A stretch of 64,000 bases of DNA from a bacterium (GTDB lineage Bacteria; Patescibacteriota; Minisyncoccia; JACQLN01). Below the pieces are notes generated by a model. That model made no database searches and was not told the DNA's origin. It was given only the letters and a program-made list of their open reading frames with translations. The DNA is taken from NCBI GenBank assembly GCA_030697795.1, contig JAUYOV010000007.1, positions 9,810-73,809 of the forward strand, written 5' to 3'. Position numbers and translations under genes: made by a program. This document shows positions 6,051 through 43,499 of this stretch, in pieces (the first letter of the stretch is position 1; the number at the start of each line of letters is the position of its first letter).

Positions 6051-7700
6051 TTAATTTGTTTCGTTGGTATCAAAATGTTTTAAGGCGTAGGCCAAGCTAG
6101 AACCAATTTTTTTGCCAGGGTTAAAAATATTAGCCGGATCAAATATATTCTTTAAATCTTCGAATATTTTATAAACCTCGCTACCAAAAAATTGTTTTAA
6201 ATATGGCCCCCTTATTAAGCCATCGTTATGTTCGGCAGTAATAGAGCCATTAAACTTAAGTAATAAGTCGTAAACATGGCGGCTTATGCTAAGTATGGAA
6301 TCTTTGGTCTTGGGATCAGCTAAATCCATTAAAGGTATTATATGAAAATTGCCATCGCCCACATGCCCAGCTATGGTATAAATTATGGGGTAGCCATCTA
6401 AAATTTTATAAAGCTGAGGCAAAAATTCTGGCAAATGATCTGGGTTTACAATAATATCGTCTATAAAAGGTGCGGTACGTAGATTTTTTATCTTTTGGCG
6501 TAAAAAATTAAAACTCTCTCTTCTAATTACCCAATATTTTTCTGTATCATAGCCCGGCAAAGTTATTTTAGTATCTAACTTAAACCCCACCAAAGCCTTC
6601 TCAGCGGCTTTTGTTTTTTTATAGGCCATATCCGCGGTCTCGCTAGAAAACTCTGCCAATATAATCAACTTGGGCATACCCTTGGTAAAAATAAGCCAAA
6701 ATTCGTGCAAAAAATTAAAACCTAATCTAAATATATTGCCTTTTAACTTTTTAGCCAGATCCGGTAAAAGTTTAATAGCAATCTTAAAAGTATGATCGTC
6801 GTAAGATTCTAAACTTTCTGGTTTAAATTCTAAAAGCTTGTGCGTTATTTCAGCCAAACGCTTTAAATCCTTAAGAAATACCACCAATAACCGGCGGTTA
6901 TTTTTTGGCTTTATTAAGCCAAATTTAATTTCGGTTATAATTCCCAGCGTGCCTTGAGAACCCACCAAAACTTTAGTGAGATCAAAAACTTTTGTGCTTG
7001 GATTATAAACATCCCATAAATAATAGCCCGAAGAGTTTTTACTAACCTTAGGCTTAACCTGCTGTAGCGCCTCGTAATTATTCATTACCAGATCCGAAAC
7101 TTTTCTATATATTTCCCCTTCTAAATTTTCTAGATTTTTCTTGGCTTCTAACTGGTCTGCCGAAATAGGCCCGAAAGTATATTCCTGGCCATCTCGTAAA
7201 ATAATCTTTAATTCTTTTACATAATCTATGGTTTTCCCGTACGCTAACGTCTTCTCTCCACCAGCGTTATTTGAAACCATTCCGCCCACCGTGCAAATTT
7301 CACGCGAAGCTGGATAACTTGGTAAAAGCAAGCCCTTTTTTAAAGTCTCTTTTTCAAAATCTCTATAAAACAAGCCGGGTTCCACCACGGCATAATCGCT
7401 TCCGACTTCCTTTAATTTATTCATATGTTTAGAAACATCGGCTATTATGGATTCCGAAATTGCCCCGCCCGTCATATCGGTGCCGCCCGAACGCATAGTT
7501 ATAGATAAATTTGAGTCTTGCGACTTATTTTTGGACACAAACTTAACCAAATTTTTTAAATCATCAGTATCTTTAGGAAAAATAACAACTTTAGGTTTAA
7601 TTTTAAACAAACTAGCATCCCGACTATACTTTTCTAAGTCGGTTTCACTAGTTGTTATTTCTCCTTTAAAAAACTCCTTAATTTTTGAACCAATCTCCAT
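6051..7700 (-). CDS. FAD-binding oxidoreductase (PCMH-type, GlcD/D-lactate dehydrogenase-like)
   Basis: FAD_binding_4-like N-terminus ('MRSGGTDMTGG', 'TVGGMVSNNAGG') and FAD-oxidase C-terminal region. Confidence 0.7.
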   Translation of the reverse strand: MEIGSKIKEFFKGEITTSETDLEKYSRDASLFKIKPKVVIFPKDTDDLKNLVKFVSKNKSQDSNLSITMRSGGTDMTGGAISESIIADVSKHMNKLKEVGSDYAVVEPGLFYRDFEKETLKKGLLLPSYPASREICTVGGMVSNNAGGEKTLAYGKTIDYVKELKIILRDGQEYTFGPISADQLEAKKNLENLEGEIYRKVSDLVMNNYEALQQVKPKVSKNSSGYYLWDVYNPSTKVFDLTKVLVGSQGTLGIITEIKFGLIKPKNNRRLLVVFLKDLKRLAEITHKLLEFKPESLESYDDHTFKIAIKLLPDLAKKLKGNIFRLGFNFLHEFWLIFTKGMPKLIILAEFSSETADMAYKKTKAAEKALVGFKLDTKITLPGYDTEKYWVIRRESFNFLRQKIKNLRTAPFIDDIIVNPDHLPEFLPQLYKILDGYPIIYTIAGHVGDGNFHIIPLMDLADPKTKDSILSISRHVYDLLLKFNGSITAEHNDGLIRGPYLKQFFGSEVYKIFEDLKNIFDPANIFNPGKKIGSSLAYALKHFDTNETN

Positions 7701-10211: not shown

Positions 10212-10770
10212 ATTGTACATCAAAAATCCATATCGCATCTGCCCTTAAAAAGGGTTTCTGCCTATGAGTATATTCATAAATTTCTTTTGTGCCTCCCCCC
10301 ATCCGATACTTTGGGTCAATGATTTTTACAATACTTTCTTGTTGCTTAATTATTTCTTCTAATGATCCGCAATTAAAATAATTCCCATATTCACCTGTCC
10401 AATCATCAAGCCACATACTACGACAGGCATAGATGAGATAGTCTTGATTTATATCAACTTTCTCTAAGATATCAAGAAGCATTATACCCTCAATAATTAA
10501 CGGCTCTGATTGCTTTGCAAAAGTCGATAAATCCTGACATAAAGATCTGTAGTTAATATAATCTATATATTCACCCTTATCTTTTTCTAGGTAATTATCA
10601 ACACTAACTATAATTCCACCAAATCGATCACGAATACACTGGGCTATTTTAGTGCTTTTTCCAACACCTGTTTCACCATCTACTCCAACAATATGCGGTG
10701 ACTTATTTTTTAATTCCCATAGTAATTCTTCTTGATTATTGTTTCGAACAATAATTTTTTTCTCAAACAT
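10189..10770 (-). CDS. P-loop NTPase / nucleoside-kinase-like protein
   Basis: Walker A 'GVDGETGVGKST'. Family is uncertain. Confidence 0.55.
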   Translation of the reverse strand: MFEKKIIVRNNNQEELLWELKNKSPHIVGVDGETGVGKSTKIAQCIRDRFGGIIVSVDNYLEKDKGEYIDYINYRSLCQDLSTFAKQSEPLIIEGIMLLDILEKVDINQDYLIYACRSMWLDDWTGEYGNYFNCGSLEEIIKQQESIVKIIDPKYRMGGGTKEIYEYTHRQKPFLRADAIWIFDVQSSVFNMK

Positions 10771-10784
10771 TAGTAATAAAACAC

Positions 10785-12200
10785 TTATTGAATAACTGTT
10801 ATCGCCACTGTATTAGTTCTCCCTTCTCCGCTACTTGCATTTATACAGGTAAGTGAGTAAGAGAATTCACCCGCAGTTTCAAGAAGTATATTTTGCGAAC
10901 CGCCAATATATTTACTTCCACTCCATGAATTTGATGCTGTACAATTATTAGCACCACCCGTATTTGAAGTTTCCCATCTCAATTTTACTGTTTCTCCAAC
11001 CTTCCCAGAAAAAGTTTCCGCAGGAATATCATTAAAATAGAAAATGATGTGTGGTTTTGGATCTCTAACAGAGATTAAAACATTTTTAGCAACACTTTCC
11101 CCCGCATTTCCAATGCAAGTAAGTACATAAGTGTAACGCCCTACTTGCGAAAAAGCGACTACTTCTTCTCCTACAATTGGTTTTTCACCAATCCATGCTC
11201 CAGACGCAGTGCAGGAAGTAGTATAAGCTGATTTCCAATAAAGCTTCCCAACAGTTCCTAACGATACTCCAGTTACAGACTCAGGATTAAAACTCTGTCT
11301 CGGAGCAAAATCGAGCGTTGGGGATTGTGGGGGTGGTATTTTCGTCTTGAAATCGTCTGTGTAGCTGACAAGGCCACTATTACCAATTGCCGTAATTTGG
11401 AAAGAATAATCTGTTATAGGCACAAGCTGACTTATATTTGAAAAGTGGTTAGTAGAATATCCTGTTTCCGAAATGAACAGCTTTGATGTTAGCCCACCGC
11501 CAGAAAGATATAATTTACTTTCGGTAGGTCGATTTGTTACCCACTCAATCTTTGCAGATGTCATATCTGGCACAACATTAACCGATGAAATTTTTAATGT
11601 TTCCATTAAAGTTGTTTGGGATGATATATTGCTTTGGGGTGTTGGTTGGAATATAGTAGTCGGCGTCTGGGTTGGTACAGTAACTGTTTGCGCTGGAGGG
11701 ATTGGAGTTTTCTTCAGTAATAAATCAAGCTGTTTTTGCAAAGCAGCTACTTGTTCCATTACCGAACTCAATACATTCAATTTGTTGTTTTCGGTTTTTG
11801 TTGGTGCAGTTGAGACAGAAACAGGTGCGACACTCTCAGTGTTCGCTTGTTGATCTGAATCTTTAAGTTCTAAAGCAAATAATTGGTTTAGTTTCTCTCT
11901 AGTTTTGGCACCTACATAGCCAGAAACTGGTCTTATATTTTCCTGTGTTTGCAATTTCTTTACCGCTTTAAGTGTAAGCGAGAAAAAGTTACCAGTGATT
12001 GGACCAGAATATAATCCTCTATCGGCTAAAAATTCTTGAAGTTTTATAACATCAGAATCGCCCTGTAAACCGAAACGAAGATCTCGCTCAAAAGTTTGAG
12101 CCAAAGCAAACAATGGCGCTAGTAAAATTAAAGCAAAAATAAGATACCTTTTCATGGTTTTAGGATATACCCGCAAGGTATCAAAGTAAAGCCAGATCAT
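10785..12200 (-). CDS. secreted protein with N-terminal peptidoglycan-binding (PG_binding_1-like) domain, coiled coil and Ig-like repeats
   Basis: Signal peptide. 'LRFGLQGDSDVIKLQEFLADRGLYSGPITGNF' PG-binding motif. Repeated Thr/Ser-rich beta-rich modules. Confidence 0.65.
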   Translation of the reverse strand: MIWLYFDTLRVYPKTMKRYLIFALILLAPLFALAQTFERDLRFGLQGDSDVIKLQEFLADRGLYSGPITGNFFSLTLKAVKKLQTQENIRPVSGYVGAKTREKLNQLFALELKDSDQQANTESVAPVSVSTAPTKTENNKLNVLSSVMEQVAALQKQLDLLLKKTPIPPAQTVTVPTQTPTTIFQPTPQSNISSQTTLMETLKISSVNVVPDMTSAKIEWVTNRPTESKLYLSGGGLTSKLFISETGYSTNHFSNISQLVPITDYSFQITAIGNSGLVSYTDDFKTKIPPPQSPTLDFAPRQSFNPESVTGVSLGTVGKLYWKSAYTTSCTASGAWIGEKPIVGEEVVAFSQVGRYTYVLTCIGNAGESVAKNVLISVRDPKPHIIFYFNDIPAETFSGKVGETVKLRWETSNTGGANNCTASNSWSGSKYIGGSQNILLETAGEFSYSLTCINASSGEGRTNTVAITVIQ

Positions 12201-16819: not shown

Positions 16820-18643
16820 ATGCTAGATAACTCCAAAATAAGGAACATCGCCATAATCGCACACATCGACCACGGCAAAACCACCTTGGTTGATTTTTTG
16901 CTTAAACAAGCTCATACCTTTAGAGATAATGCCGAAGAAATGAGCCAAGATTTAATAATGGATTCGGGCGAACTGGAACGCGAAAGAGGTATTACCATTA
17001 TGGCTAAAAACGCCGCCATAATTTATAAAGACTACAAAATAAATATAATAGACACGCCAGGACACGCCGACTTTGGCGGCGAAGTAGAACGCACCTTAAA
17101 TATGGCCGATGGCTGTCTTTTGTTGGTGGATGCTCAAGAAGGCCCCATGCCTCAAACCCGCGTGGTTTTGCAAAAAGCTTTACAACTAGATTTAAAACCA
17201 ATAGTGGTTATAAACAAAATAGATAAAGCCAATCGCCGAATTGCCGAAGTATTAGAAGAAATAAATTCTTTATTTTTAGAACTGGCTCACCACGAAAACC
17301 AATTAGAATTTCCGGTTATATACGCCGTTGGTCGCAACGGCCAAGCTTTTGAGCATATGCCCGAAAACCCAGATACCGAAAACAACGCAACATTGGAACC
17401 TCTTTTCGAAAAAATAATTTCGTATATACCCGCGCCCAAAGGCAAAAAAGAAGAGCCTTTCCAAATGCTAGTAACATCTTTGGATTCCGACAGTTACAAA
17501 GGTGCTTACGCTATAGGCCGCGTCACACGCGGCACAATTAAAGCCAAAACATCGGTTGTTATTATTGATTCTAAAAAAGAAAATTCTAGAGGCCGTATAG
17601 AAAATATTTTTGCGTGGAAGGGTCTAAAGAAAGAAGAAATTGAAGAAGCAGTTGCTGGCGATATTGTGGCTATAACAGGGCTTGCTGGTATTGGAATCAA
17701 CTCCACAATTTGCGATCCGGCCAAACCAGAGGCATTGCCTCAAATAGCCATAGAAGAACCTACGCTTAAAATTTTAGTTGGTCCCAATACTTCCCCTTTT
17801 GTAGGCCAAGATGGAAACTTATTAACCGGCCGCCAAATCCAAGAAAGATTAGAAAAAGAGTTAGAAACAAACGTAAGTATGAAAATGGAAGTTAGCGGTG
17901 GAAAGTTTTTGCTGTCCGGCCGAGGCGAATTACATCTTTCTATTCTTTTAGAAACATTACGCCGAGAAGGTTTTGAAATGGAAGTTTCTAAGCCACAAGT
18001 TATTACTAAAACAGAAAATGGTTCTGTTATGGAACCGTGGGAAGAAGTTTTAATAGATACGCCCGAAAAAAACCGTGGTGTTATTTTAGCCGAACTCGCC
18101 AAAAGAAAAGCCGAATTAGCCGACACCTTCCCCCATGCCAGCGACGTTAGGTTTGTTTACAATATGCCGACACGAGCCTTGCTTGGTTTGCGTAGCTCGC
18201 TGATAACTTTAACTCGAGGATTATTTGTTTTAAATTCTCGTTTTATAGATTTTAAAAAGCAAGGCGAAGCTCCAGCCAAAATAAGGAAGGGAGTTTTAAT
18301 TGCGCACGAAGCCGGCAAAGCCGTAGCTTTTGGTTTAGAAGTTGCCCAAGGCCGAGGCCTAACTTTTATTGAACCTGGCACGCCTGTTTACGTTGGTATG
18401 ATTGTGGGTGAAAATAGTAAAGAGCACGATATAGACATTAATGTTTGCAAAGGCAAGCAATTAACCAATATGCGCTCTAAAGGTAGCGATGGCATGATTC
18501 AATTGGCTCCCGCCACAATTTTAAACTTAGAACAATCTTTAGACTTTTTAGAAGACGATGAACTTTTAGAAATCACACCCAAAAATCTGCGACTTCGCAA
18601 AAAATATTTAAGCAAAAATGAAAGGGAGAAAAATAAACAATAA
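16820..18643 (+). CDS. typA: translational GTPase TypA/BipA
   Basis: G-domain 'AIIAHIDHGKTTLVD', 'DTPGHADFGGEVER' and 'NKIDK'. Length is 607 aa. Confidence 0.9.
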   Translation: MLDNSKIRNIAIIAHIDHGKTTLVDFLLKQAHTFRDNAEEMSQDLIMDSGELERERGITIMAKNAAIIYKDYKINIIDTPGHADFGGEVERTLNMADGCLLLVDAQEGPMPQTRVVLQKALQLDLKPIVVINKIDKANRRIAEVLEEINSLFLELAHHENQLEFPVIYAVGRNGQAFEHMPENPDTENNATLEPLFEKIISYIPAPKGKKEEPFQMLVTSLDSDSYKGAYAIGRVTRGTIKAKTSVVIIDSKKENSRGRIENIFAWKGLKKEEIEEAVAGDIVAITGLAGIGINSTICDPAKPEALPQIAIEEPTLKILVGPNTSPFVGQDGNLLTGRQIQERLEKELETNVSMKMEVSGGKFLLSGRGELHLSILLETLRREGFEMEVSKPQVITKTENGSVMEPWEEVLIDTPEKNRGVILAELAKRKAELADTFPHASDVRFVYNMPTRALLGLRSSLITLTRGLFVLNSRFIDFKKQGEAPAKIRKGVLIAHEAGKAVAFGLEVAQGRGLTFIEPGTPVYVGMIVGENSKEHDIDINVCKGKQLTNMRSKGSDGMIQLAPATILNLEQSLDFLEDDELLEITPKNLRLRKKYLSKNEREKNKQ

Positions 18644-18688
18644 AAAAACATCCCGATTTATATCGGGATGTTTTTTTGCTAAAACGAA

Positions 18689-19036
18689 TTAGTATTCGTC
18701 TCTGCGACCGCCACCGAAACCGCCTCGGCCGCCGCCGCTATTACCGCCGCGGCTAAATCCGCCACCGGTTCTGCGAGGAGGCCTATCACCCATAGGGCGG
18801 GCTTCGTTTACAGTCAGTTTACGGCCTTCGAAATCTTTACCGTTCCACATTTCAATGGCTTTCTCGGCGTCTTCGTCGTTAACCATTTCCACGAAACCAA
18901 AGCCTCGTGAGCGGCCAGTCATCTTGTCGGTTATTATGGTAGCCGACTCAACTTCGCCAGCCTGTGAAAAAGCATCTTTCAAACCGTCTTGAGTGGTGCT
19001 GTAAGGCAAACCACCAATATATAATTTCTTTGACAT
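18689..19036 (-). CDS. glycine-rich RNA-binding protein (RRM domain)
   Basis: RNP-2 'LYIGGL' and RNP-1 'RGFGFVEM', with an RGG/GGF tail. GC-rich relative to flanks; structured 5' leader. Confidence 0.85.
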   Translation of the reverse strand: MSKKLYIGGLPYSTTQDGLKDAFSQAGEVESATIITDKMTGRSRGFGFVEMVNDEDAEKAIEMWNGKDFEGRKLTVNEARPMGDRPPRRTGGGFSRGGNSGGGRGGFGGGRRDEY

Positions 19037-19367
19037 TGTGCTCTTATGCTAAATATGTGTAAGGCGACCTCTCTTTGTTTCTATTGGGGCTTTTCGCCTT
19101 ACTATCTATGCTTTGAGCATAAGACTCCGAAACTACGAGATATCTTACAACATCTTATTTATAAACTATTACAAACTTAAAAGCAACCCCGCTCTTGAAA
19201 AGTATATTTTCTCTGATTGCCTTCGGCAATACTTTTCAGGGACGGAGTTTGACCCAGCAGAGCAAATTTGACAAACAAGTTTATAAAGTGTAGTATGTAT
19301 CCAACAGTAACAGACAGTCCTTTCCCACAAAAAGTCGCGTATGACGCGATTAACCAAGGAGGTTAGT

Positions 19368-20120
19368 ATGAAGAAGTGTTTTATGATTCTCTCCGCGATA
19401 CTGATCGGACTGATCAGCTCGCCACCCGCACAAGCCAAGCTGATCCTGCCAAGCGATCTGGTCATCACCACCACAGAGATGGCCGGCACCGGGTTCTCCA
19501 TCGACCAGAAGGTTGAGGGCGATATCCTCACACTCACCTTTGATATCGTGGACAAGGCCGACATCAGAAATTTCGGCTTCGGTCTGAAGTTCGACCCCAA
19601 CGAATACAAGCTGGAACAAGTTGAGTCGGGCTTCATCATCAGTTCAGATAATCCCGACAACGTGTCTATCGGTAGTCTGTTCACGTTAAAGGACGTACCC
19701 AAAACCACCGTGATCACCTTGAGAAAAAAGGGAGACAAATGGGGTACCATCACTCCTCAAGAACTCAATGTGTTCACTAGTGGGAAACGAATACTCGCCT
19801 TCGAACCGGCGCCGTCCTTCGTACCGAAAGCATCGGCAATGCCGAAAGCGTTGACTCTGGGCAACTACCCCAACCCCTTCAACCCCGAGACCGAGATACG
19901 GTATAGTTTGCCCGCCGACGGTCTTGTCGAGTTGAAGATCTACAACATGGTCGGCCAGGTGGTACGCACATTGGTGAGCGGACACATGCCCGCCGGCGAA
20001 CACGTCATCAAGTGGAACGCTACCGACAATAGTGGCCAACCGATCGCCGGAGGCATCTACTTCTACAAGCTTACCTCGGGCGCCCAAACGGCCGTCCGTA
20101 GAATGCTTCTGCTGAAATAG
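19368..20120 (+). CDS. secreted protein with T9SS-type (Por) C-terminal sorting domain
   Basis: AAGGAGG RBS and signal peptide 'MKKCFMILSAILIGLISSPPAQA'. C-terminal 'NYPNPFNPETEIRYSLPADGLVELKIYNMVGQVVRTL...GIYFYKLTSG' matches the T9SS CTD consensus. The region is markedly GC-rich. Confidence 0.7.
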   Translation: MKKCFMILSAILIGLISSPPAQAKLILPSDLVITTTEMAGTGFSIDQKVEGDILTLTFDIVDKADIRNFGFGLKFDPNEYKLEQVESGFIISSDNPDNVSIGSLFTLKDVPKTTVITLRKKGDKWGTITPQELNVFTSGKRILAFEPAPSFVPKASAMPKALTLGNYPNPFNPETEIRYSLPADGLVELKIYNMVGQVVRTLVSGHMPAGEHVIKWNATDNSGQPIAGGIYFYKLTSGAQTAVRRMLLLK

Positions 20121-20221
20121 CATTCGCCCCCGAACTCTGAAGAGGGGGCGGCTGGTCCGATCAGATTTCCCCGACACCGTTCTAGCGGCATCAGGTTCGG
20201 GGGCATTAACCTCCACAACAA

Positions 20222-20258
20222 AGCGCTCCGATGCGAAGCATCGCGAGCGCTTTTTTAA
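20222..20258 (+). terminator. rho-independent terminator (AGCGCTCCGATGCGAAGCATCGCGAGCGCT + TTTTTT)
   Basis: Long GC-rich hairpin plus T-run, directly after the T9SS-CTD gene. Confidence 0.6.
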
Positions 20259-20315
20259 TATTTATCTAGGTCATTCTTCTATGTCCTTTGTAAAAAAACT
20301 TACTAACAACTTATC

Positions 20316-20349
20316 GTGTATTGAGCATACGATCGTATGCTCAATACAC
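20316..20349. repeat. 34-bp perfect palindrome GTGTATTGAGCATACGA|TCGTATGCTCAATACAC
   Basis: Perfect dyad between the GC-rich island and the ABC permease 3' end. Confidence 0.8.
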
Positions 20350-20387
20350 GCAGATTTTAAATCTTAATTTTTAGTTACTATATTCTA

Positions 20388-21176
20388 CTAATCCAACTTC
20401 ATCAACATCCCCTTCTCTTTTACTCTCGCAAACATTCTAGAGAAAAACCAAAGCACTAAAGCCAAGTAAAAAATATTCGTGCCGAAAGCCCAAAGTAAAT
20501 TATTAACCGGCAAGGTTCCGGTAGCAATTACGGCGCGCATACCTTCAAAAACGTGTGCCGAAGGTAAAATTTGAGCCACGTATTGCAAACTTGGCGGTAA
20601 AACCGAAACTGGGTAAAACACCGCGCTAAAGGGTTGTAATAAAAATACCAAACCAAAAGCCAAAACTTGAGCGGCACTGCCAAAGCGCAAAATTATGCCT
20701 GTGGTAAAAAAGCCTAAGGTCCAGCCAAAAATTAAAAGATTTAATATAAATGGAATTAAGTAGAACCCAAAATATAGTAAATTAAACTGATACAACCCCC
20801 AAGCTAAGCCAGCCATAACTGCGCCCACAATAACTATTCTTACTACAGCAATTAAAACACTGGAAATTAGAAACTCGCTTAAGCGCAAGGGTGAGACAAA
20901 AATATTTAATAGATTTCTCTCCCAAACTTCTTCTAAAAACGTAGTAGAAATAGCACGCTGTGACTGGCTCATTAAATCCCAGAAAATTATAGCGCCTAAA
21001 AGTATAGTTACCACATTGAGCCCACCAAAGCTCATTTTTTCTAAATATAAGCTCAAAAAACCCCACAGTAAAAGTTCTATAATCGGCCAAAAGAAAATAT
21101 CCATCAGCCTTGGCACACTGCGCTGGTATAAATACAAGTGACGGATTAATAAAGCGTTGATTCGGTGAAGTTTCAT
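20388..21176 (-). CDS. ABC-2 type transporter permease
   Basis: 262 aa with 6 TM helices. Adjacent to the ABC ATPase gene. Confidence 0.7.
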   Translation of the reverse strand: MKLHRINALLIRHLYLYQRSVPRLMDIFFWPIIELLLWGFLSLYLEKMSFGGLNVVTILLGAIIFWDLMSQSQRAISTTFLEEVWERNLLNIFVSPLRLSEFLISSVLIAVVRIVIVGAVMAGLAWGLYQFNLLYFGFYLIPFILNLLIFGWTLGFFTTGIILRFGSAAQVLAFGLVFLLQPFSAVFYPVSVLPPSLQYVAQILPSAHVFEGMRAVIATGTLPVNNLLWAFGTNIFYLALVLWFFSRMFARVKEKGMLMKLD

Positions 21177-21235
21177 AATTTAGAAATTTAGTAGATAGAA
21201 TGTAGAATGTAGTTTTCTTAACAACTTTCCACTTT

Positions 21236-21970
21236 CTACTTACTATCATCTAGATTTTCCCTCGCTATCGCAATAAAAAGATCATTTAAATCCTTGTGTC
21301 CATATTTTTTAACCAATTCATCCGGCGTGCCATCGTCTTTTAATTTCCCTTTTTGAATAAATATTACACGGTCGCAAATTTCTTCTACCTCCATCATATT
21401 ATGCGAAGTGTATAAAATAGTAAGCCCTTTCTCTTTTTTAATTTTACACAGAAGCTGGCGAGTTCTATCGGCAATATCAGGATCAAGCGAAGCGGTAGGC
21501 TCATCTAAAAGCAAAAGTTTAGGATCGTTGAGCAAGGCTTTGGTTAAATTAAGCCGAGTTAGTTGACCAGTTGATAATTGCGAAGTCATTTTGCCTAAAA
21601 ACTCCCGAATACCAAAAAAATCAGCTAATTCGTCTATTTTAGCTTTGATATTTTTAACTCCATACAAGCGTGCAAATGTAGCCAAGTTCTCCCAAACTTT
21701 TAAATTGCCCGGTAAATTAACATAGGGCGAAGAAAAATTTATTTGGTTTAATATTTTCTCGCGGCTATGTTTCATATCTAAACCAAATATTTCTATAGCG
21801 CCGCTCGTCGGTGTAACTAAATCCAAAATCATTTGTATGGTGGTGGTTTTACCCGCACCATTTGGCCCCAGTAAACCAGTTATAGTTCCCTCTGCCACAC
21901 CAAAAGATAAATTATCAACGGCTGTTACCCCGTTGAATTTTTTAACTAAGTTTTTTATTTCTAATATCAT
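21236..21970 (-). CDS. ABC transporter ATP-binding protein
   Basis: Walker A 'GPNGAGKTT', signature 'LSTGQ', Walker B 'LLLLDEPT'. Confidence 0.85.
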   Translation of the reverse strand: MILEIKNLVKKFNGVTAVDNLSFGVAEGTITGLLGPNGAGKTTTIQMILDLVTPTSGAIEIFGLDMKHSREKILNQINFSSPYVNLPGNLKVWENLATFARLYGVKNIKAKIDELADFFGIREFLGKMTSQLSTGQLTRLNLTKALLNDPKLLLLDEPTASLDPDIADRTRQLLCKIKKEKGLTILYTSHNMMEVEEICDRVIFIQKGKLKDDGTPDELVKKYGHKDLNDLFIAIARENLDDSK

Positions 21971-22189
21971 TGGTGTTCTATTCTACTATTTATCAAACTA
22001 AAAAGACAAGTTTTTGTTTTCGCGAGCGAAAATTGTTTGAATTTTCAACCCACCACTATTAGAGAATATTCCTACCTAATCTTTAACCACTAGTCAATTT
22101 TATATACAAATTGTAATTTTTTATCTTTGTTCCACTACTTCAGGACTAGTAAAAGTGACCCTCCTCATTTTTAAAATAAGAATACATAT

Positions 22190-22242
22190 GCTAACTATAG
22201 TATGTAGAACTAAAACCAGCAAAAACATATACTATAGTTAGC
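22190..22242 (+). promoter_or_regulatory. C-box-like operator: 14-bp inverted arms GCTAACTATAGTAT / ATACTATAGTTAGC, each containing the palindrome ACTATAGT, about 25 bp apart
   Basis: Lies 18-70 bp upstream of the controller-protein start, the usual position for C-protein autoregulatory sites. Confidence 0.5.
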
Positions 22243-22259
22243 TAATATAGGGAAAAGCT

Positions 22260-22481
22260 ATGCACAATAAAATTGAACTACTAGAAAAATTTGGCAAAAA
22301 GATTAGGGAAGAAAGATTTAAAAGAGGTTTTTCACAGGAAGAACTTGCTATTAGAACAGGTGTTCACCGCACTTATATTGGTATGATAGAAAGAGGGGAG
22401 AAAAATATCACCCTAATCAATATAAAAAAAATTGCAAAAGCTTTTGATTTGACAATTGATAAACTTTTAACTAATTTATAA
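22260..22481 (+). CDS. XRE-family HTH controller (C) protein of an R-M system
   Basis: 73-aa Cro/C1-type HTH. Stop codon abuts the ATG of the next gene. Convergent MTase follows. Confidence 0.65.
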   Translation: MHNKIELLEKFGKKIREERFKRGFSQEELAIRTGVHRTYIGMIERGEKNITLINIKKIAKAFDLTIDKLLTNL

Positions 22482-23180
22482 ATGGATATAAAAAAGTTAG
22501 AAAATCTTATTAATGACGAGATGGACAAGGTGATCTTGAAAATAGTAAATGATTTTCAAGAACTTAATATATCAGCCAAATCAAGGGCTGGAGCAGAAAT
22601 AAGTGATTTTCTTGAAGATAGGTTTGTTGAATATACGAAAAGCAATAAATTCTTTACGAAATCTGAAAAATCACCAAAGGGTGCTACAAAAAATCCATGG
22701 GACGCTAAAACAGTTTTCTGCTTAAATAATCTTCAAGAAACAATCTGGATTGATTTTAAGGCATTAAAAACTTCTAGCAAAGACAGTAATCCTGATATTG
22801 GAACTCCAAATAAAATAGTTAGCTTTATCAAAGAAGGTAATTTTTATCTCCTTTATGTTTATGTTTTTTATGAAGAAACAAAAAAGGGATTAAAGTTCGT
22901 AAAGATAAATGGTGATTATATAAAATCTTATTTTTTGAAAGATATTAGCCATACCTTTCGAAGAAACCCCAAAAATCAATTGCAGGTAAATATATCAGAA
23001 TTACCAGAATATCGCACAAGAAAAGATTTTATCAAGCTATTAGTAAAGAAAATTAAAGAATCACATGAACGACAAATAAAAAATTCTGGCAAGGCTCTAA
23101 AAAATTTACCAGAGGAAGAAAAAATATTATTAAAAAAGAATAAAGAATCAGAAGCTAAGATTTTAAAAAATCTGAAATAG
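22482..23180 (+). CDS. putative type II restriction endonuclease
   Basis: Position is between the C protein and the MTase. Very low GC. No motif confidently recognised. Confidence 0.4.
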   Translation: MDIKKLENLINDEMDKVILKIVNDFQELNISAKSRAGAEISDFLEDRFVEYTKSNKFFTKSEKSPKGATKNPWDAKTVFCLNNLQETIWIDFKALKTSSKDSNPDIGTPNKIVSFIKEGNFYLLYVYVFYEETKKGLKFVKINGDYIKSYFLKDISHTFRRNPKNQLQVNISELPEYRTRKDFIKLLVKKIKESHERQIKNSGKALKNLPEEEKILLKKNKESEAKILKNLK

Positions 23181-24876
23181 AATTTTTTACAAAAACAACT
23201 TCTTCTGTGTTCAAATCATAAAACTCATAAATTAACAGGTTAAGTTTATTTTCTAGCTCCTCTTTATCTGTATAGTCTCTGTAGACTCTTTCAACAATGT
23301 TGCAAATTTTTTCTTGCAATTTGATATCGTCAGGAATTGGCATAGAATATAAATCAGAAATTTTTATCTGAGGCTGTTTACCCTTTCTATAGCGAATAAT
23401 TTCCATTTTTTGTGCATAAAAAGTAGCAATCATAGAATTCAAATAACCACACAAAAAATTAAGATAATCTTTTGTTTTTTTATCTCCTTTTTTCAAAGAA
23501 AACACATATAAGCTGTTATTGGCGGAACTCGGGTTTTTATCATAAGTGCAAATAATTTCCTTAGCTGATTGTCTTATAAATATCTTGGGATTATCATATA
23601 CCAAAAAATCACCCAATCCAATTCTTTTTTTATTTTTTATTCCTTTTTTAATAAGTTCTTCTTTCAAATCGTCATTAATTTTATCTTGTAATTTTTTATC
23701 GTAGTAAAAATATTTATCAGAAAAAAGAATACAATATTTATCATAAAGTGCTTTCGATCCTTGATAATATTTATAGTTTTTATAACCTCTTTCATTGTTT
23801 TGCTCTACGCTAACAAATTTATTTTCCATATCCAGCAACATTGTGCATGTTCTAAGTTCTTTCTTAGGAAATTGATCTTTGAGAGTTCTAGATGATTTTT
23901 TGTTAATTTTATCTAGAATATTTTGGGCAATATTCGAAAAATTAAGTCTAAATTTATATTCATCATTTTCATTCAGCCAAGCGGTTTGATTAATTTCTTG
24001 TAGTTCTTCGGTAAAAAAGTTTCTTACCTTCACAACATTTTTTTTATCAAATTTATTTTCTATTTTAATTATTAGCTGCCCACTTGCAACACCATCAAAA
24101 CTTGAAATATTGTTTTCTATTGTATTGATTTTGGTATTTTCTAATAGATATTTCCGTGTGTATTTGTAGGCTGTTTCAAAAAAAGATATATCAATAATAA
24201 AAGCAAGTTTCCCATTTCTTTTAAGATAATCTAAGCTATGTTCGAGAAAAAGCATTACATAATTAATTTTTCCGTTTTTTAAACTTTTTGGAAATTGTCT
24301 ATACTGACTTAAATAATTTACTCTTTGCATCTCATCCCTCTTTTGATCTCTTCTTCCGTATAACGTTACGTAAGGAGGATTGCCAATAACATAATCCATA
24401 CTTTCTAAAATAAGCTCAAGATCTTTATTTTTTGTTTTGTTAAATTCAAATAAAGTAAGATCATTTTTTACTTTTTCAGTAAAATCATATATAAAGGCAT
24501 TGAACTTACCTTTGTATTTCTCACCAAAAAAACTATCATATAAATCTGATATATTTTCTTTTGTCCTTTTTATCATTTCTGGGTCGATATCAATGAAATA
24601 TAAACCATTCTCAATAAAATACCGAATTTTTTCTTTATCTGGGCAACATTGATATATTCTTTCAAGCATTCTTAATAAAAAAATTCCACTACCAACTGCT
24701 GGCTCTAATATTTTTTTGTTTATAATTCCATCTTTAAATTCAATAATATCAAGAATAGAATCAATAATATTTATTTCATTAGTAAAAAAGACCCCATTAT
24801 TCTTTTTAAATTTGTAAGATAACTGATCTTGATAATTTATTTGTTTTTTTATTGTTTTTAAAATTATTTGATTCAT
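23155..24876 (-). CDS. N6-adenine DNA methyltransferase (gamma-class)
   Basis: Motif I 'EPAVGSGIFL' and motif IV 'GNPPYV'. Start moved to the internal 'MNQIIL' so that it no longer overlaps the divergent OLD gene. Confidence 0.8.
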   Translation of the reverse strand: MNQIILKTIKKQINYQDQLSYKFKKNNGVFFTNEINIIDSILDIIEFKDGIINKKILEPAVGSGIFLLRMLERIYQCCPDKEKIRYFIENGLYFIDIDPEMIKRTKENISDLYDSFFGEKYKGKFNAFIYDFTEKVKNDLTLFEFNKTKNKDLELILESMDYVIGNPPYVTLYGRRDQKRDEMQRVNYLSQYRQFPKSLKNGKINYVMLFLEHSLDYLKRNGKLAFIIDISFFETAYKYTRKYLLENTKINTIENNISSFDGVASGQLIIKIENKFDKKNVVKVRNFFTEELQEINQTAWLNENDEYKFRLNFSNIAQNILDKINKKSSRTLKDQFPKKELRTCTMLLDMENKFVSVEQNNERGYKNYKYYQGSKALYDKYCILFSDKYFYYDKKLQDKINDDLKEELIKKGIKNKKRIGLGDFLVYDNPKIFIRQSAKEIICTYDKNPSSANNSLYVFSLKKGDKKTKDYLNFLCGYLNSMIATFYAQKMEIIRYRKGKQPQIKISDLYSMPIPDDIKLQEKICNIVERVYRDYTDKEELENKLNLLIYEFYDLNTEEVVFVKNSISDFLKS

Positions 24877-24947
24877 GTGTTTAGGAATATTTAAATATTT
24901 GCTAATCTTAGTATACAGGGCTATAATAAAAAATACAAACACTATAA

Positions 24948-26708
24948 TTGGCAAAAAATATGAGGATTACTAAGCTTATCATAAAAAATTATCGGAGTTT
25001 TGACTCCGTGGGGCAGAAAATTTTGTTCCCTGCTTTCCACTCTGCCCTTGTAGGCAAGAATAACTCAGGAAAAACAAACATCTTTAATGCGCTAAATTTA
25101 GTTTTGGGTAACAAAAATCCAGCTTATTTAAGATTTGAAAAAGATGATTATTTTGATTCTAATAAGCCAATAGAAATACAAGCCATGATTTCAGATATTA
25201 CTGCAACAGACAAGAGTCATATCTTTTCCATTCCAAACCTTACCAAACAACAGCAAGGTGCTTTAAATAGCAAAGTCAGTGACGGTACAGCGGATATTAC
25301 TTTTCTACTCAGAAAGAACTATGAATATCTTCCTCTGGATGATTCGGATGAAGAATCAGAAAGTAGTCAGGATACTTTTGAAATAAAACTTTGGGGATTT
25401 AATGTTTTTAGAAAGAAAGAAGATGTTAGAAAATCAGTAATAAAAATGTTAATGGTTCCCGCAATAAGAGATTATCAAGATGAGCTTTCAGCTTCCAAGT
25501 GGACGGCATATGGTCAATTAATGAAGGAGGTTTTGGAAAACTCACCCCATTACTCCAATATAAAAACTGATCTTTCAAATCTAAATATAAAAATTCAGCA
25601 GGTTTTTGAAACAGAAAAAACAAAATTACTCGAAGGAGCACAAATAGTATCATACGTTGACGATATAAATTTTCAATTAACAAAAGATGATAGTCCGTCG
25701 GAACTATTGAGAAATCTGGAAATATTTATAACAGAAGGGTCAAAAAAGTTTAATATCGAATATGTTGGAACAGGCACGCAGAATGCAATAATTATTGGAA
25801 TTTTAGAGTTAGCATTAAAAAATAAGAGTTCAAAGATTAAACTTTTCTGCATTGAAGAACCAGAAGCTTTCATACATCCTCACGGAATCAGATATTTGGG
25901 TTCGCTGATAAAAAATATATCAAAAGACCAAAATACTCAGATTTTAGTATCCACACATTCCTTGTCCCTGACGGCTAATTTTGCTCCAAATGAAATTATT
26001 AGGGTAGATAAAACATATGGAAAAACTGTCATCAAGCAAGATGTATCAATAGGCAACACTCATTTTAGAAGATTTATTCATCAGGATAATGCTGAAATAT
26101 TTTTTAGCGACAGAGTTCTCTTTATTGAAGGACCAACAGAAAAACACTTGTTTGGAAATCTTGATAAGCTGACAAAGTTAAATCCAGCCGACCCAAATGG
26201 TATAAATTGCAATTTTGATCGAATTAATCTTGGTGTAATCAGGCTTGATTCTATCAATTCCATTGTGAATTACATAAAAATTGCGGAGGCTTTTAGCATT
26301 CCTTATTCAGCCATAGTAGATAGAGATTTTATTGATGATCCGAGCAAACAAAATAAATGTAAGGAATTATGCTCAGAGGTGGGGGCAAGCTATCAGACGT
26401 CAGATAAAGTAAAATTAATCAGTGATTTGAAAGCAAAAAATATTGTCGTAAATAGCAAAGGAGAAATTGAGGATATATTTTCTGATCAAGAAATTACAAG
26501 TATCACAGGCAAACAAATTGCAGATATTCAAGCAATAAAATCTAGACACACCAAAACTAGTAAAGCTTTCAAGGAAATTTTTGGGGTTGGAAAAGCTGAA
26601 TATGCAATTGTTATAGCTGATTTTTATTCTCAAAATACTCAAACACACCCGCTTGATGATATTATTAGAAAAATTTACAATAATAATATACTAAATATAA
26701 ATATTTAA
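24948..26708 (+). CDS. OLD-family ATP-dependent endonuclease (ABC-ATPase + TOPRIM)
   Basis: Walker A 'GKNNSGKTN', 'IEEPEAFIHPH' and 'STHS' motifs. C-terminal TOPRIM 'LFIEGPTEKHLF'. No UvrD-like partner gene adjacent. Confidence 0.7.
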   Translation: MAKNMRITKLIIKNYRSFDSVGQKILFPAFHSALVGKNNSGKTNIFNALNLVLGNKNPAYLRFEKDDYFDSNKPIEIQAMISDITATDKSHIFSIPNLTKQQQGALNSKVSDGTADITFLLRKNYEYLPLDDSDEESESSQDTFEIKLWGFNVFRKKEDVRKSVIKMLMVPAIRDYQDELSASKWTAYGQLMKEVLENSPHYSNIKTDLSNLNIKIQQVFETEKTKLLEGAQIVSYVDDINFQLTKDDSPSELLRNLEIFITEGSKKFNIEYVGTGTQNAIIIGILELALKNKSSKIKLFCIEEPEAFIHPHGIRYLGSLIKNISKDQNTQILVSTHSLSLTANFAPNEIIRVDKTYGKTVIKQDVSIGNTHFRRFIHQDNAEIFFSDRVLFIEGPTEKHLFGNLDKLTKLNPADPNGINCNFDRINLGVIRLDSINSIVNYIKIAEAFSIPYSAIVDRDFIDDPSKQNKCKELCSEVGASYQTSDKVKLISDLKAKNIVVNSKGEIEDIFSDQEITSITGKQIADIQAIKSRHTKTSKAFKEIFGVGKAEYAIVIADFYSQNTQTHPLDDIIRKIYNNNILNINI

Positions 26709-26726
26709 AAAAACTTGTCGCAATAT

Positions 26727-35561: not shown

Positions 35562-37109
35562 TTATTGAGTTTTTCTAGCTAATTTTATATAAGCCAACCC
35601 CATAACCAAGCCTAAACTCAATACTCCAATCATCCAGAATAATAACCCGCCAGTCAATTTACTCCAAAACGTGATCCTCTCTTCCTGTTTTTTGTCCAGT
35701 TCAACAAATCCCAAGTCCGAGGCTTCAACTTGGCTATAGAAACTAGCCAAATAATTTTTAGCCGGTAAATTTTCGGGCTTTTGTCTTACTAAATTTGGAA
35801 CTGCCTTTGTATTTTCTAACAAAGCTGCGCCCGAAGAAGTAACAATGTTAGCCCCACCCGGGGTTAGTTCTTTTGTCCAAAAAAATCCGCTTGATGTCCG
35901 GCTGGCTGACGCGCCATAAGTAATTTTTTCAAAAACAACTTCATCTATAACTAAGCTATTGGGATATTTTAGTTTGACTGACCCGAGCGAAGTATCCAAA
36001 TCAGAAATCATTTGAGAAATAACTAAATAGCCTCCTGCAGTAATGATAGAAAACGATGGCAAAATAAAACTCCTTTTTCCACTTTCCAAAATCCACCCAC
36101 TAATATCTAGAGTTGATTTAGTTGGATTAAATATTTCTATCCAAGAAGGAGTTGAAGAAGCCCCGCTCACAAAAACTTCGTTAATGATTGCCTTGCCGCC
36201 AAAAACAAAAGCTCTAATTTGATCTAAGGCTATTTCAGTTCCATTAGAAATTTCTAAAGTAACCAGATAAGTCCCAGAAAATTGATAGCTATATTCTATT
36301 TCTATGCCCTCTTTTACAGAGCCGTCACCTAAATACCATTTATAAGAACTAGCGCCTTCCGATTTTGAAGCATCAAATTTTATTTTTTGATTAGTTTCAG
36401 CTATCACATCTTGCCCTGCCACAGCTTTTAGCAAAATTGCTGGAGTTGACGTGCCGGTAGAAACGCCTGAACCGCCACCGCCCGATAAAATCGGAATTGT
36501 AGTTGATTCTGTGGTTGAGGCTGGCACACTAGGACTCGAAGCAACTCCGCTATTTTGTGCTTTGGGTGTACCAATTATATTTCCGCCATTCGCATCTTTG
36601 CCGTTTTTAGTTACGCTATCATTGGTTTGCCAAGTGCCGTCGGATTTTCTTTCCAGACTGGCTTTAGAAACATTGTCCCCCGCCGGCCAGCCGGCCGAAG
36701 CGTCCAGCGAATCAACTACTGCGCTTGTGGAGTCTTTCAAAACTAAATTTTCACCACTATTATTTAAACCGCTACCCGCGAACGGCCCAAAAATATCGGC
36801 CACAATATCGCTGATACTGTTATCATCAGTGCGTTCAATTAGGTAGTAGCCGAGAGGCGCGATCGTTCCAGAAAGATTAAGAATCAAAGTGGAACCGCCA
36901 GCTTCGTACAAACCCCAGCCGGTAAGATCAATCGCGCTAGACGATGAATTATAAAGTTCAATCCACTCATCGGCGCTATTAGCTGTAGAGCCCATCCAAG
37001 CCACCTCGTTTATTAAAACAGAACCGGCCGCGTTTAACGAGGCCGGTAAAGAAAACAAAAATATGGCGATTAACATCCCAAACATAGACATCAAACGTGG
37101 AAATTTCAT
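35562..37109 (-). CDS. surface protein with two lamin-tail domains, a PKD-like domain and a C-terminal TM anchor
   Basis: 'VLINEVAWMGS...EWIELYN...DLTGWGL' LTD motif, repeated ('AIINEVFVSG...WIEIFNP...DISGWIL'). 'KWYLGDGS...YSYQFSGTYLVTLEI' resembles PKD. Confidence 0.65.
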   Translation of the reverse strand: MKFPRLMSMFGMLIAIFLFSLPASLNAAGSVLINEVAWMGSTANSADEWIELYNSSSSAIDLTGWGLYEAGGSTLILNLSGTIAPLGYYLIERTDDNSISDIVADIFGPFAGSGLNNSGENLVLKDSTSAVVDSLDASAGWPAGDNVSKASLERKSDGTWQTNDSVTKNGKDANGGNIIGTPKAQNSGVASSPSVPASTTESTTIPILSGGGGSGVSTGTSTPAILLKAVAGQDVIAETNQKIKFDASKSEGASSYKWYLGDGSVKEGIEIEYSYQFSGTYLVTLEISNGTEIALDQIRAFVFGGKAIINEVFVSGASSTPSWIEIFNPTKSTLDISGWILESGKRSFILPSFSIITAGGYLVISQMISDLDTSLGSVKLKYPNSLVIDEVVFEKITYGASASRTSSGFFWTKELTPGGANIVTSSGAALLENTKAVPNLVRQKPENLPAKNYLASFYSQVEASDLGFVELDKKQEERITFWSKLTGGLLFWMIGVLSLGLVMGLAYIKLARKTQ

Positions 37110-37375
37110 CTAAAAATATTTCTGATGTTTAATTGATTTCTATTTAGTCCGTCTAATTTTTCTGCGCGAATATCTAAATCTTTTACCACAGTCTCCAAAA
37201 GAGCTTGCCTAAGGCCGGTTGCGGCAGATGTCGCATCAGAAGCTATGGTCATGGTTTGCCAAGCATAAAAATAAAAAACTAATCCCACTAAAAGAGCTAT
37301 TAAACTAGTTAAAATAAAAACTATTTTTAATCCATTTTTTTCTATAAATCTAGCTAAAATTATATTTTTATTCAT
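37106..37375 (-). CDS. small single-TM protein (pilus-cluster associated)
   Basis: 89-aa ORF, translationally coupled to its neighbours. Confidence 0.4.
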   Translation of the reverse strand: MNKNIILARFIEKNGLKIVFILTSLIALLVGLVFYFYAWQTMTIASDATSAATGLRQALLETVVKDLDIRAEKLDGLNRNQLNIRNIFR

Positions 37376-38411: not shown

Positions 38412-38461
38412 TTTAGCTTTTAGCTTTTAGCTTTCTAGTAATTTCCTAGGAAGCTAAGAAG

Positions 38462-39550: not shown

Positions 39551-39598
39551 AATTCGTCTACTAATTATAAGTAAATTATATCATAAATGTTGATTTTA

Positions 39599-40048: not shown

Positions 40049-40081
40049 TTATTTAGAAATTAGATATTAGATATTAGAAAT

Positions 40082-40609: not shown

Positions 40610-40750
40610 AAATTTCTCCTTCGACCCCGAGTTCAGGATCGAGGGGTAAATCCTAATACCTAAATTCTAAACAATATTTAATTTTACAAACTTGGAATTT
40701 TAAAAATTGGAATTTGTTTCGGATTTCGGATTTAGTGTTTCGTGCTTGAA

Positions 40751-41224: not shown

Positions 41225-41244
41225 ATTTAATTTATACCTATATT

Positions 41245-43497: not shown

Positions 43498-43499
43498 TT

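Follow-up and report, generated by a model that had tools for sequence, protein, structure and literature searches.

The subject of this report is a single GC-rich gene in a 64,000-nucleotide stretch of DNA from an ultra-small groundwater bacterium of the Patescibacteria (GenBank assembly GCA_030697795.1, contig JAUYOV010000007.1, positions 9,810 to 73,809); the whole stretch is called the window below, and coordinates refer to it unless a related locus is named. The gene (19368-20120, forward strand) encodes a secreted, two-domain protein of 250 amino acids, in which a cohesin-like domain is followed by an immunoglobulin (Ig)-like domain resembling the type-A C-terminal domain (CTD) of type IX secretion system (T9SS) cargo proteins. 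We refer to it as the CTD gene. A Patescibacteria clade carries this gene as a true single-gene locus on the chromosome, and the protein combines known domain families in an unexpected lineage; the NCBI pipeline already names it "FlgD immunoglobulin-like domain containing protein". The best explanation, which we consider probable though well short of certain, is an old transfer from the Fibrobacteres-Chlorobi-Bacteroidetes (FCB) group to Patescibacteria, with repurposing as a hypervariable surface protein. Our data extend over 64 kb of the present genome and over no more than 20 kb of its relatives.

In this scenario, the whole cohesin and CTD gene would have entered the ancestor of the clade once, long ago, from a GC-rich FCB-type bacterium, and would have stayed at one locus since, between the native RNA recognition motif (RRM) and ABC-2 transporter genes where both flanks are present. 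Its product would be exported through Sec and would stay on or near the surface, or be released, as a binding or scaffold protein. The cohesin-like domain would provide the variable binding face, and the conserved CTD would serve as a structural or anchoring Ig module rather than as a T9SS export signal.

Domains of the protein and distribution of the family

By inspection, the N-terminus looks like a Sec signal peptide (amino acids 1-23, 19368-19436), with an MKK start, a 15-residue hydrophobic stretch, and a PPAQA/K ending that includes the cleavage motif AQA/K; A23, at position -1, is invariant in the family. An AlphaFold2 (AF2) model of the full-length protein, based on a 40-sequence alignment (mean predicted local distance difference test score, pLDDT, of 83.5), consists of two beta-sandwiches joined by a low-confidence linker (amino acids 151-165). 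The N-terminal domain (about amino acids 30-150, 19455-19817; pLDDT 83-96) matches the cohesins 2jh2, 2vo8, and 2w1n in a Foldseek comparison with the PDB, with a probability of 1.00, a target-normalized template modelling score (TMt) of about 0.63 for single modules, a root-mean-square deviation of 3.6 to 4.5 Å, and sequence identity of 11% to 16%. The Pfam cohesin family (PF00963) has no match in the window protein at E≤0.01; it is present in the outgroup homologues P0016-P0019 and others (homologous proteins carry P numbers and related loci L numbers).

The last 85 residues (amino acids 166-250, 19863-20117) form the T9SS type-A CTD-like Ig domain. They match NCBIfam TIGR04183 with 38 bits (cutoff 23), and the best Pfam score is to FlgD_ig (PF13860; 42.1 bits, cutoff 27), with Por_Secre_tail (PF18962) slightly under its cutoff of 27 at 26.2 bits. 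TIGR04183 is matched at E≤0.001 in 14 of 14 family members, and three motifs are invariant in the 14-member alignment, N-PNPFNP (with Y or F at position 2), GxYFY, and MLLLK; the assignment of the conserved stretches to T9SS motifs B, D, and E is by position. A model of the CTD alone (pLDDT 87.9) has seven strands, and its Foldseek matches include PorU (6za2; query-normalized score, TMq, 0.72-0.74), PorZ (5m11), and the CTDs of NucA and RemA (8glk, 8gl6). It superposes on the PorU and PorZ CTDs, on translocon-bound CTDs, and about as well on FlgD Ig-like domains; sequence-level PDB matches of the protein are to FlgD only (3c12, 7eh9, 7bhq). The initial annotation had recognized a T9SS-type CTD at this C-terminus, and the TIGR04183 score, the seven-stranded Ig fold, and the motifs agree with it.

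A full-length search returned 3,528 hits, almost every one of them by way of the CTD. Full-length relatives number just 14 (37% to 65% identity), after which the score drops from 168 to 114 bits. All family members with a taxon-specific name are labelled Patescibacteria group bacterium, and the others are "bacterium" or nameless. A profile of the N-terminal domain searched against a word-indexed set of 5.8 billion proteins recovered family members only, and an exhaustive search of 1.84 billion representatives with the same profile recovered eight proteins of the same architecture (234-264 amino acids, plus one fragment) and one weak hit. In these searches, the N-terminal domain family is restricted to a single Patescibacteria clade. 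When IMG/VR was scanned with the family alignment, no family member came up, only CTD-level matches at no more than 54% identity over full-length CTD matches; we therefore reject a viral origin.

The closest outgroup consists of small metagenome proteins with cohesin and CTD domains and a KKMLLLK ending. One of these, P0017, is 35% identical overall, has the KKMLLLK end, and is identical at about two-thirds of the CTD positions. Another, P0054, is encoded on a frameshift-ridden contig with a GC content of 0.57, where its gene has a GC content at third codon positions (GC3) of 0.81 and adjoins a gene for another CTD protein. Those CTD hits that carry names belong to Latescibacteria, Cloacimonetes, and Zixibacteria. 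Both the T9SS type-A CTD and its pairing with a cohesin are typical of GC-rich, FCB-like organisms, and a foreign origin of the gene is plausible.

Conservation, composition, and divergence of the locus

The CTD gene and a divergently oriented RRM gene are bracketed by the BipA gene (16820-18643, forward strand) and a pair of ABC-2/ABC transporter genes (20388-21970, reverse strand). An identical RRM protein is encoded on 18 public contigs, where the gene order is ABC, ABC-2, a FlgD_ig/Por-tail protein of 240-258 amino acids, RRM, at times a small hypothetical gene, BipA, an AI-2E transporter, and a peptidyl-prolyl isomerase. The divergent RRM/CTD pair recurs in Hainich groundwater assemblies in ENA, in the NCBI metagenome-assembled genomes (MAGs) GCA_943356865.1 and GCA_030697855.1, and in Logan contigs. 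In related Patescibacteria, independently assembled, nine diverged orthologues are found at this locus; eight adjoin the divergent RRM gene and six are upstream of the 3' end of the ABC-2 gene, the position that the gene of the most distant member, L116, has. The orthologues show only 37% to 66% identity. No empty site was found among the relatives, the gene being present at this site in nine of the nine related loci examined. An exact copy of window positions 19123-20344, identical over both junctions, was independently assembled in Logan (L001). Mobility hallmarks are absent: there is no integrase or transposase open reading frame (ORF) between BipA and ABC-2, the nearest tRNAs are at 511 and 48773, and repeats are of chance length only. 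The source names of the orthologues and relatives support the Patescibacteria-like character that had been ascribed to the surrounding genome.

The initial annotation offered a chimeric assembly or contaminating fragment as one explanation, in which a piece of an FCB-group genome would have been misjoined into a Patescibacteria contig. The sharp GC step and the many family members known from contigs of only 1-2 kb would fit such an error. Yet diverged orthologues show the same junctions at no fewer than nine loci, drawn from independent assemblies in ENA, NCBI, and Logan, the promoter, leader, and Shine-Dalgarno (SD) sequence upstream are AT-rich, native-looking, and conserved, and L001 is identical to the window across both junctions, leaving this scenario a next to negligible probability. 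That so many family members sit on contigs this short suggests frequent assembly breaks at this locus.

The GC content of the CTD gene is far above that of its neighbours, as the initial annotation had stated. Its coding sequence has a GC content of 0.53 and a GC3 of 0.70, compared with a GC content of 0.369 for the window and a GC3 of about 0.32 elsewhere in it. The raised GC extends from the start codon to the terminator. GC3 is uniform along the gene (signal peptide 0.71, N-terminal domain 0.70, linker 0.68, CTD 0.79). The other approximately 70 ORFs have GC3 values of 0.19-0.44, apart from the RRM gene, the target gene of a diversity-generating retroelement (DGR), and a 110-amino-acid, TTG-started ORF at 1471-1803 on the reverse strand (GC3 0.56); the DGR target (45285-46016, GC3 0.66) is the only other gene in the 64 kb with GC3 above 0.6. 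In the nine orthologues, GC3 is 0.70-0.82 throughout, beside flanks of 0.24-0.61; even on the GC-richest background, that of L116, the gene stands at 0.82 versus 0.61 in the flanks. The CTD gene uses CTG, ATC, TTC, and AAG where the genome uses TTA, ATT, TTT, and AAA, which is the pattern of a GC-rich genome.

The RRM gene (18689-19036, reverse strand; 115 amino acids) does not belong to this foreign-looking unit, although the initial annotation had placed it in the GC-rich island. Its protein matches Pfam RRM_1 with 87.8 bits (cutoff 20.7) and NCBIfam NF058537 with 103.3 bits (cutoff 100) and has a Gly/Arg-rich tail ending in GGGFSRGGNSGGGRGGFGGGRRDEY. The gene has a GC content of 0.52, with values of 0.56 and 0.51 at first and second codon positions (GC1, GC2) and only 0.48 at third positions, where C- and T-ending codons are favoured; its raised GC is thus due mainly to Gly/Arg codons. 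Homologues with 61% to 75% identity are widespread in Azambacteria, Paceibacterota, Falkowbacteria, Peregrinibacteria, and other Patescibacteria; a CTD neighbour is missing in every one of these, and in each the GC excess over the genome is only modest. Among the relatives of the window compared, the RRM protein is 100% identical and its synonymous divergence (dS) is 0.24, compared with 0.8-1.4 for the flanking genes, and the leader of about 150 nucleotides is 91% to 92% identical where coding flanks are 78% to 85%. The low dS and conserved leader suggest RNA-level constraint or autoregulation, and from these alignments the gene would appear to be highly expressed and possibly autoregulated. 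The RRM gene is native, unrelated to the CTD gene, and probably highly expressed. A literature search on RRM proteins in Patescibacteria found nothing on point.

A recently acquired, not yet ameliorated island comprising the RRM and CTD genes would account for the atypical GC3 and codon usage, for a strong SD in an SD-poor genome, and for a domain typical of other phyla. We regard it as most improbable: orthologues at the same site in relatives at a dS of about 1 have diverged to 37-66% identity, no integrase, tRNA, or flanking repeats accompany the genes, the RRM gene is native and widespread, and the relaxation model described below excludes passive retention. The diverged same-site orthologues, the conserved signals, and the lack of integrase, tRNA, and repeats together lead us to reject chimera, contaminant, and recent island alike. 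Of the horizontal acquisition that had been proposed, an FCB-type foreign origin stays plausible and a recent island does not. The initial annotation would have given up the idea of a foreign segment if homologues were widespread in related genomes and the composition were uniform with the flanks; homologues are widespread there, but the composition is not uniform. For MAG curation, the locus is a case in which a sharp GC island reflects neither contamination nor recent transfer, and composition-based decontamination tools and island callers would mislabel or remove it.

The CTD gene evolves much faster than its surroundings. By the NG86 method, flanking genes have dS of 0.8-1.4 and nonsynonymous divergence (dN) of about 0.05, and the CTD gene has dS of 1.1-1.8 and dN of 0.26-0.63. 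Its dN is 5 to 10 times that of the flanks. At the nucleotide level, the coding flanks are 78% to 85% identical to those of relatives and the RRM gene with its leader 91% to 92%; the CTD gene is 65% to 70% identical or unalignable. The CTD is the constrained part of the protein (dN 0.28, versus 0.70 for the N-terminal domain). The identity matrices of the two domains disagree. The window allele combines an N-terminal domain of the P0002-P0005 type (69% to 77% identity) with a CTD of the P0006/P0008 type (72%), and P0014, with the most divergent N-terminal domain (25% to 32%), has a CTD that is 77% to 85% identical to those of the P0002-P0005 group. In bootstrapped quartets, the N-terminal domain topology has 92% to 100% support and the conflicting CTD topology 100%. 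Since the trees of the two domains conflict, the gene is a mosaic. L006 and L003 are 90% to 91% identical in their flanks, and most of the gene body (L006 718-1334) has no blastn match at E≤1e-5. The locus thus behaves as a hypervariable surface-protein locus, with a fast N-terminal domain, allele swaps between lineages, and domain reshuffling.

Positions 1-1538 of L011 are 100% identical to L003 8831-10368, a segment comprising the CTD and RRM module, and the comparison also takes in L011 2147-2333. Past the module, L011 has a gene for a 145-amino-acid protein that L003 lacks, and identity at the BipA end is only 86%. Either the module moved between lineages very recently, or this short Logan contig is a chimera.

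To relate composition to divergence, we used a two-state relaxation model of strong (G, C) and weak (A, T) bases, in which the relaxation expected since each split is taken from the divergence of flanking genes at fourfold degenerate sites. Under this model, in 14 of 15 pairs the present CTD-gene GC content at fourfold sites (GC4, 0.74-0.86) would demand an ancestral value greater than 1.0. Passive non-amelioration is thus excluded under the model, and the composition is being maintained or replenished. GC-richness is therefore a stable property of a fast-evolving, recombining locus rather than a fresh scar of transfer. The excess would be held by selection on mRNA or codons or by GC-biased conversion tied to frequent recombination. 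A GC3 of about 0.75 beside neighbours at about 0.3, over about one substitution per synonymous site, makes the locus a test case for selection versus biased conversion versus gene flow.

The GC content might alternatively be replenished by alleles repeatedly imported through homologous replacement from unsampled, GC-richer members of the clade or from another reservoir. Such a process would draw on mechanisms seen at this locus, namely allele replacement and domain mosaicism, and on clade backgrounds that vary in flank GC3 from 0.24 to 0.61; the identity of L011 and L003 across the CTD and RRM module, but not beyond, also fits. We nevertheless think it unlikely. The GC3 of the gene, 0.70-0.82, is above every sampled background, including that of L116, so exchange among sampled genomes cannot account for the lift, and the exhaustive profile searches found no family member outside this type of locus. 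Ordinary translational selection in a very highly expressed gene is another candidate, compatible with the promoter of the CTD gene, which is close to consensus, with its perfect SD, its leader hairpin, and its strong terminator, and with the raised GC3 of the RRM gene, itself probably highly expressed. The biases of the two genes are unlike each other, however: at fourfold sites, the RRM gene has C at 0.40, T at 0.42, and G at only 0.05, whereas the CTD gene has C at 0.44 and G at 0.28-0.37 and prefers AAG, GAG, and CTG, unlike the locally preferred codons. Other secreted or surface genes in the window (pilins and a protein with LTD and PKD domains) have GC3 values of 0.24-0.42, and we judge simple translational selection to be quite unlikely.

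The one other strongly GC-rich gene of the window offers a parallel. The family of the DGR target has 582 hits, many of them from Parcubacteria, Sungbacteria, and Minisyncoccia, and its homologues in three other Patescibacteria (L113 6001-6714, L114 6001-6750, and L115 6001-6687) have GC3 values of 0.49 versus about 0.28, 0.71 versus about 0.55, and 0.74 versus about 0.49 for their respective neighbours. In L115, the bAvd and reverse transcriptase genes adjoining the target are at 0.29-0.36, below the GC3 of that genome. Two unrelated hypervariable gene families share the GC3 excess, so GC-richness is not a simple mark of recent foreign origin. Recombining bacterial genes tend toward higher GC3 (PMC4450053). 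It is conceivable, as a tentative idea for which we would claim well under an even chance, that GC-rich islands in these Patescibacteria mark hypervariable, recombining surface genes whose GC is held by a locus-specific force, either GC-biased conversion or mRNA selection. The GC3 effect reported for recombining bacterial genes amounts to a few percent; the excess of +0.2 to +0.5 found here is far larger and would be an extreme case.

Surface module or secretion signal

No T9SS components (PorK/L/M/N, SprA/Sov, PorU/V/Z) were found among the 43 window proteins scanned with Pfam, in agreement with the initial annotation, nor in the Pfam lists of the related loci; the window does encode SecA and a type IV pilus cluster. 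A literature search on T9SS or CTDs in Patescibacteria or the Candidate Phyla Radiation found nothing on point. Patescibacteria have been proposed to lack an outer membrane (PMC12102498). Because no T9SS part is present in the window and an outer membrane is presumed absent, the CTD is probably an Ig-like surface module, and repurposing of the gene product as a surface or extracellular protein is plausible.

CTD proteins have been stated in a recent review to be restricted to Bacteroidota and to track T9SS core genes. The review also describes motifs A, B, D, and E as exposed on the surface and as candidate interfaces for binding T9SS subunits, motifs D and E with the terminal lysines as required for secretion, and the last 13-22 residues as needed or enough for it (PMC10202324). 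The CTD described here could accordingly be a working T9SS signal, either for a cryptic T9SS in this lineage or for docking on PorV, PorU, or PorZ of a diderm FCB host, which would tether an epibiont. This would explain why motifs B, D, and E do not vary among the 14 members, the terminal KMLLLK included, why the CTD is more conserved than the N-terminal domain, and why its model superposes on PorU, PorZ, and translocon-bound CTDs. On the other hand, none of the 43 scanned proteins is a T9SS gene product, the lineage is thought to have no outer membrane, the conserved motifs may merely serve folding, and FlgD Ig-like domains match about equally well. From the reviewed binding role of the motifs and their invariance here, an encounter of the CTD with a T9SS component stays a low-probability idea; we consider a working signal of any kind very unlikely, and the particular version in which the motifs are kept because the protein docks on the T9SS surface machinery of a diderm host is a slim prospect indeed.

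Several considerations weigh against an old FCB-to-Patescibacteria transfer with repurposing and a composition maintained at the locus. The donor and the direction of transfer would follow from domain distribution and composition only, and the outgroup consists mostly of metagenome fragments. Neither motif D (GxYFY) nor motif E (KMLLLK) varies in any of the 14 members, which is not obviously expected of a mere structural module, and T9SS genes may lie outside the 64 kb covered. Vertical descent and the substitution process of the flanks are built into the relaxation model as assumptions, and the demonstrated allele exchange breaks the first of them. An unsampled GC-rich reservoir within the clade could replenish the GC, as relatives with flank GC3 up to 0.61 exist. 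NG86 estimates of dS above 1 are near saturation.

An old transfer with repurposing is still the explanation that we prefer. The gene would then encode a candidate host- or environment-facing surface protein under diversifying pressure, comparable with DGR targets and pili. A fully motif-conserved CTD under purifying selection, in a lineage thought to have neither an outer membrane nor T9SS, counters the view that CTDs track T9SS and raises the question of other binding partners for this domain.

Expression signals, neighbouring features, and comparison with known systems

The CTD gene stands alone and has strong expression signals of its own. A sigma-70-type promoter (19268-19296, forward strand) consists of TTGACA, a 17-nucleotide spacer, and TAGTAT, matching 10 of 12 consensus positions, and TTGACA with a -10-like hexamer is found at the equivalent position in the other orthologous leaders read. 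A hairpin in the 5' untranslated region (UTR; 19334-19350) lies directly upstream of the SD. Hairpins of 6-8 bp occur in eight of the eight leaders folded (z-scores of -2.1 to -3.8), with at least four different stem sequences; that of L116 has yet another stem, GCCCAGC/GCTGGGC. Pairing is thus kept across orthologues through compensated changes in the stem. The SD AAGGAGG (19356-19362) is 5 nucleotides ahead of the ATG at 19368, and its core is kept in eight of eight orthologues, mostly as ACCAAGGAGGTT. The ORF extends from 19341 to 20120, and the start at 19368, which is preceded by the SD and conserved in orthologues, gives the 250-amino-acid protein. The secreted protein of the initial annotation is therefore upheld at a length of 250 rather than 251 amino acids, and its genes, SD, and GC-rich terminator are all present where they had been placed. 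An alternative start at ATG 19341 (259 amino acids) was rejected; it sits inside the leader hairpin and is missing from most orthologues, and an exact-product look-up of the 259-amino-acid version found no match. Reverse-strand ORFs at 19169-19753 and 19686-20216 were likewise rejected as genes, since long ORFs are expected in GC-rich DNA; the domain hits of the sense ORF, its conserved start signals, and the intact sense ORF beneath the antisense calls in L006 also counter an antisense reading. In L006, a public gene caller had annotated antisense ORFs in place of the intact CTD gene.

Downstream of the stop codon is a GC-rich, structured insert of about 80 nucleotides in the 3' UTR (20126-20205), between the CTD stop codon and the terminator; the 145-nucleotide region has a minimum free energy of -65 kcal/mol (z-score -5.5). 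The insert is present only in this genome and its Logan twin L001, and the orthologous loci are without it. No second copy was found in the window or in any locus compared, and we reject a repeated mobile element on the basis of this single copy. Rfam searches of the RRM leader, the CTD leader, and the 3' insert found nothing at gathering score and only hairpin-type noise at E≤1. The intrinsic terminator (20220-20256) is a GC-rich stem followed by a T-run, and each orthologue has its own GC-rich hairpin and T-run past the stop codon. The stretch separating the CTD gene from the convergent ABC-2 gene contains a perfect, loopless 36-bp palindrome with 18-nucleotide arms (20315-20350); L001, the Logan contig, stops at 20344, just within the palindrome.

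On the other side of the locus, the RRM gene is separated from the convergent BipA gene by a likely bidirectional intrinsic terminator (18642-18677), found in repeat and terminator scans, with a perfect hairpin of 16-nucleotide arms and A/T runs on both sides. The RRM promoter and long 5' leader (19037-19187, reverse strand) are the best-conserved noncoding DNA at the locus. Several relatives have a hypothetical gene for 128 or 145 amino acids between RRM and BipA (in L002, the region of 10462-10848), which the window lacks. L006 (positions 1-1400) lacks the ABC/ABC-2 pair, and its CTD gene adjoins an ornithine/arginine decarboxylase gene.

The window is indeed SD-poor, as had been noted, with an SD core in 8 of 47 genes and a strong SD in 5. 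Both GC3 outliers are among the few genes with a strong SD. Ahead of many genes there is no SD and a TATAAT-like box only about 5-10 nucleotides from the start codon (for example, upstream of 6051-7700, 42250-43497, 46825-48588, and 52911-54473), which suggests widespread leaderless or very-short-leader mRNAs.

Beyond the transporter genes is a low-GC (0.23-0.32) insertion at 22260-26708 that is missing from L002-L005, where synteny jumps from 22040 to 26711. It encodes an HTH_3 controller-like protein, a SwaI-like restriction endonuclease, an Eco57I/N6-type methyltransferase, and an OLD-family nuclease (AAA_15 and TOPRIM). The insertion resembles a defence island, and nothing else near the CTD locus is clearly strain-specific. 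A large type IV pilus region (35562-48588) includes genes for PilM, a PilN-like protein, several N-methyl pilins, PilC, and PilB; the gene for a secreted protein with LTD and PKD domains (35562-37109) adjoins the pilus genes, and all have ordinary AT-rich codon usage. A complete DGR is located inside the pilus cluster (43500-46016). It comprises an AT-rich reverse transcriptase gene (43500-44378, reverse strand), an AT-rich bAvd-like gene on the opposite strand (44531-44866, forward), the template repeat (TR, 44892-45011), the variable repeat (VR, 45297-45416), and the target gene (45285-46016, reverse strand), which has a strong SD. On the coding strand of the target, 18 of 20 TR/VR mismatches are at TR adenines.

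The features of this locus recall several known systems. Hypervariable loci with allelic replacement between conserved flanks are similar in that the body of the CTD gene is barely alignable between close genomes and is a domain mosaic, and the DGR target of the window shares its GC3 excess. Unlike DGR or cassette loci, the CTD gene has no TR/VR repeat, reverse transcriptase, or cassette array. Action of a DGR on the CTD gene was rejected; no TR/VR-type repeat connects 18600-20400 to anything, and the DGR of the window targets another gene. The RRM protein resembles bacterial single-RRM, glycine-rich RNA-binding proteins (NF058537, "RNA-binding regulator"; the cyanobacterial Rbp type) in its one RRM_1 domain, Gly/Arg tail, and long conserved leader; its one link to the CTD gene is adjacency.

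The predicted fold of residues 30-150 or so, together with the Pfam cohesin matches of the outgroup homologues, relates the N-terminal domain to cohesins, both cellulosomal ones and the modules of Clostridium perfringens glycoside hydrolases (2jh2, 2vo8, 2w1n); the window protein differs from these in having no PF00963 match, in its 11% to 16% identity to solved cohesins, and in the lack of a scaffoldin context. FlgD Ig-like domains (PF13860) give the top Pfam score, the sole sequence-level PDB matches, and a structural match equal to that of T9SS CTDs, but the protein has no FlgD N-terminal region, no flagellar genes are nearby, and its motifs and C-terminal ending are those of a T9SS CTD. 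A further likeness is to T9SS type-A CTD cargo (TIGR04183/PF18962) of Bacteroidota and other FCB bacteria. Like such cargo, the protein has a Sec signal peptide and a CTD of about 85 amino acids with NYPNPFNP, GxYFY, and K-x-LLLK, its seven-stranded Ig-like fold superposes on the PorU and PorZ CTDs, and its closest sequence relatives share the layout of cohesin and CTD. It differs from them as an orphan, with no paralogue in the window and no T9SS gene among the 43 proteins scanned, and it is encoded in a Patescibacteria clade, where an outer membrane is presumed to be missing.

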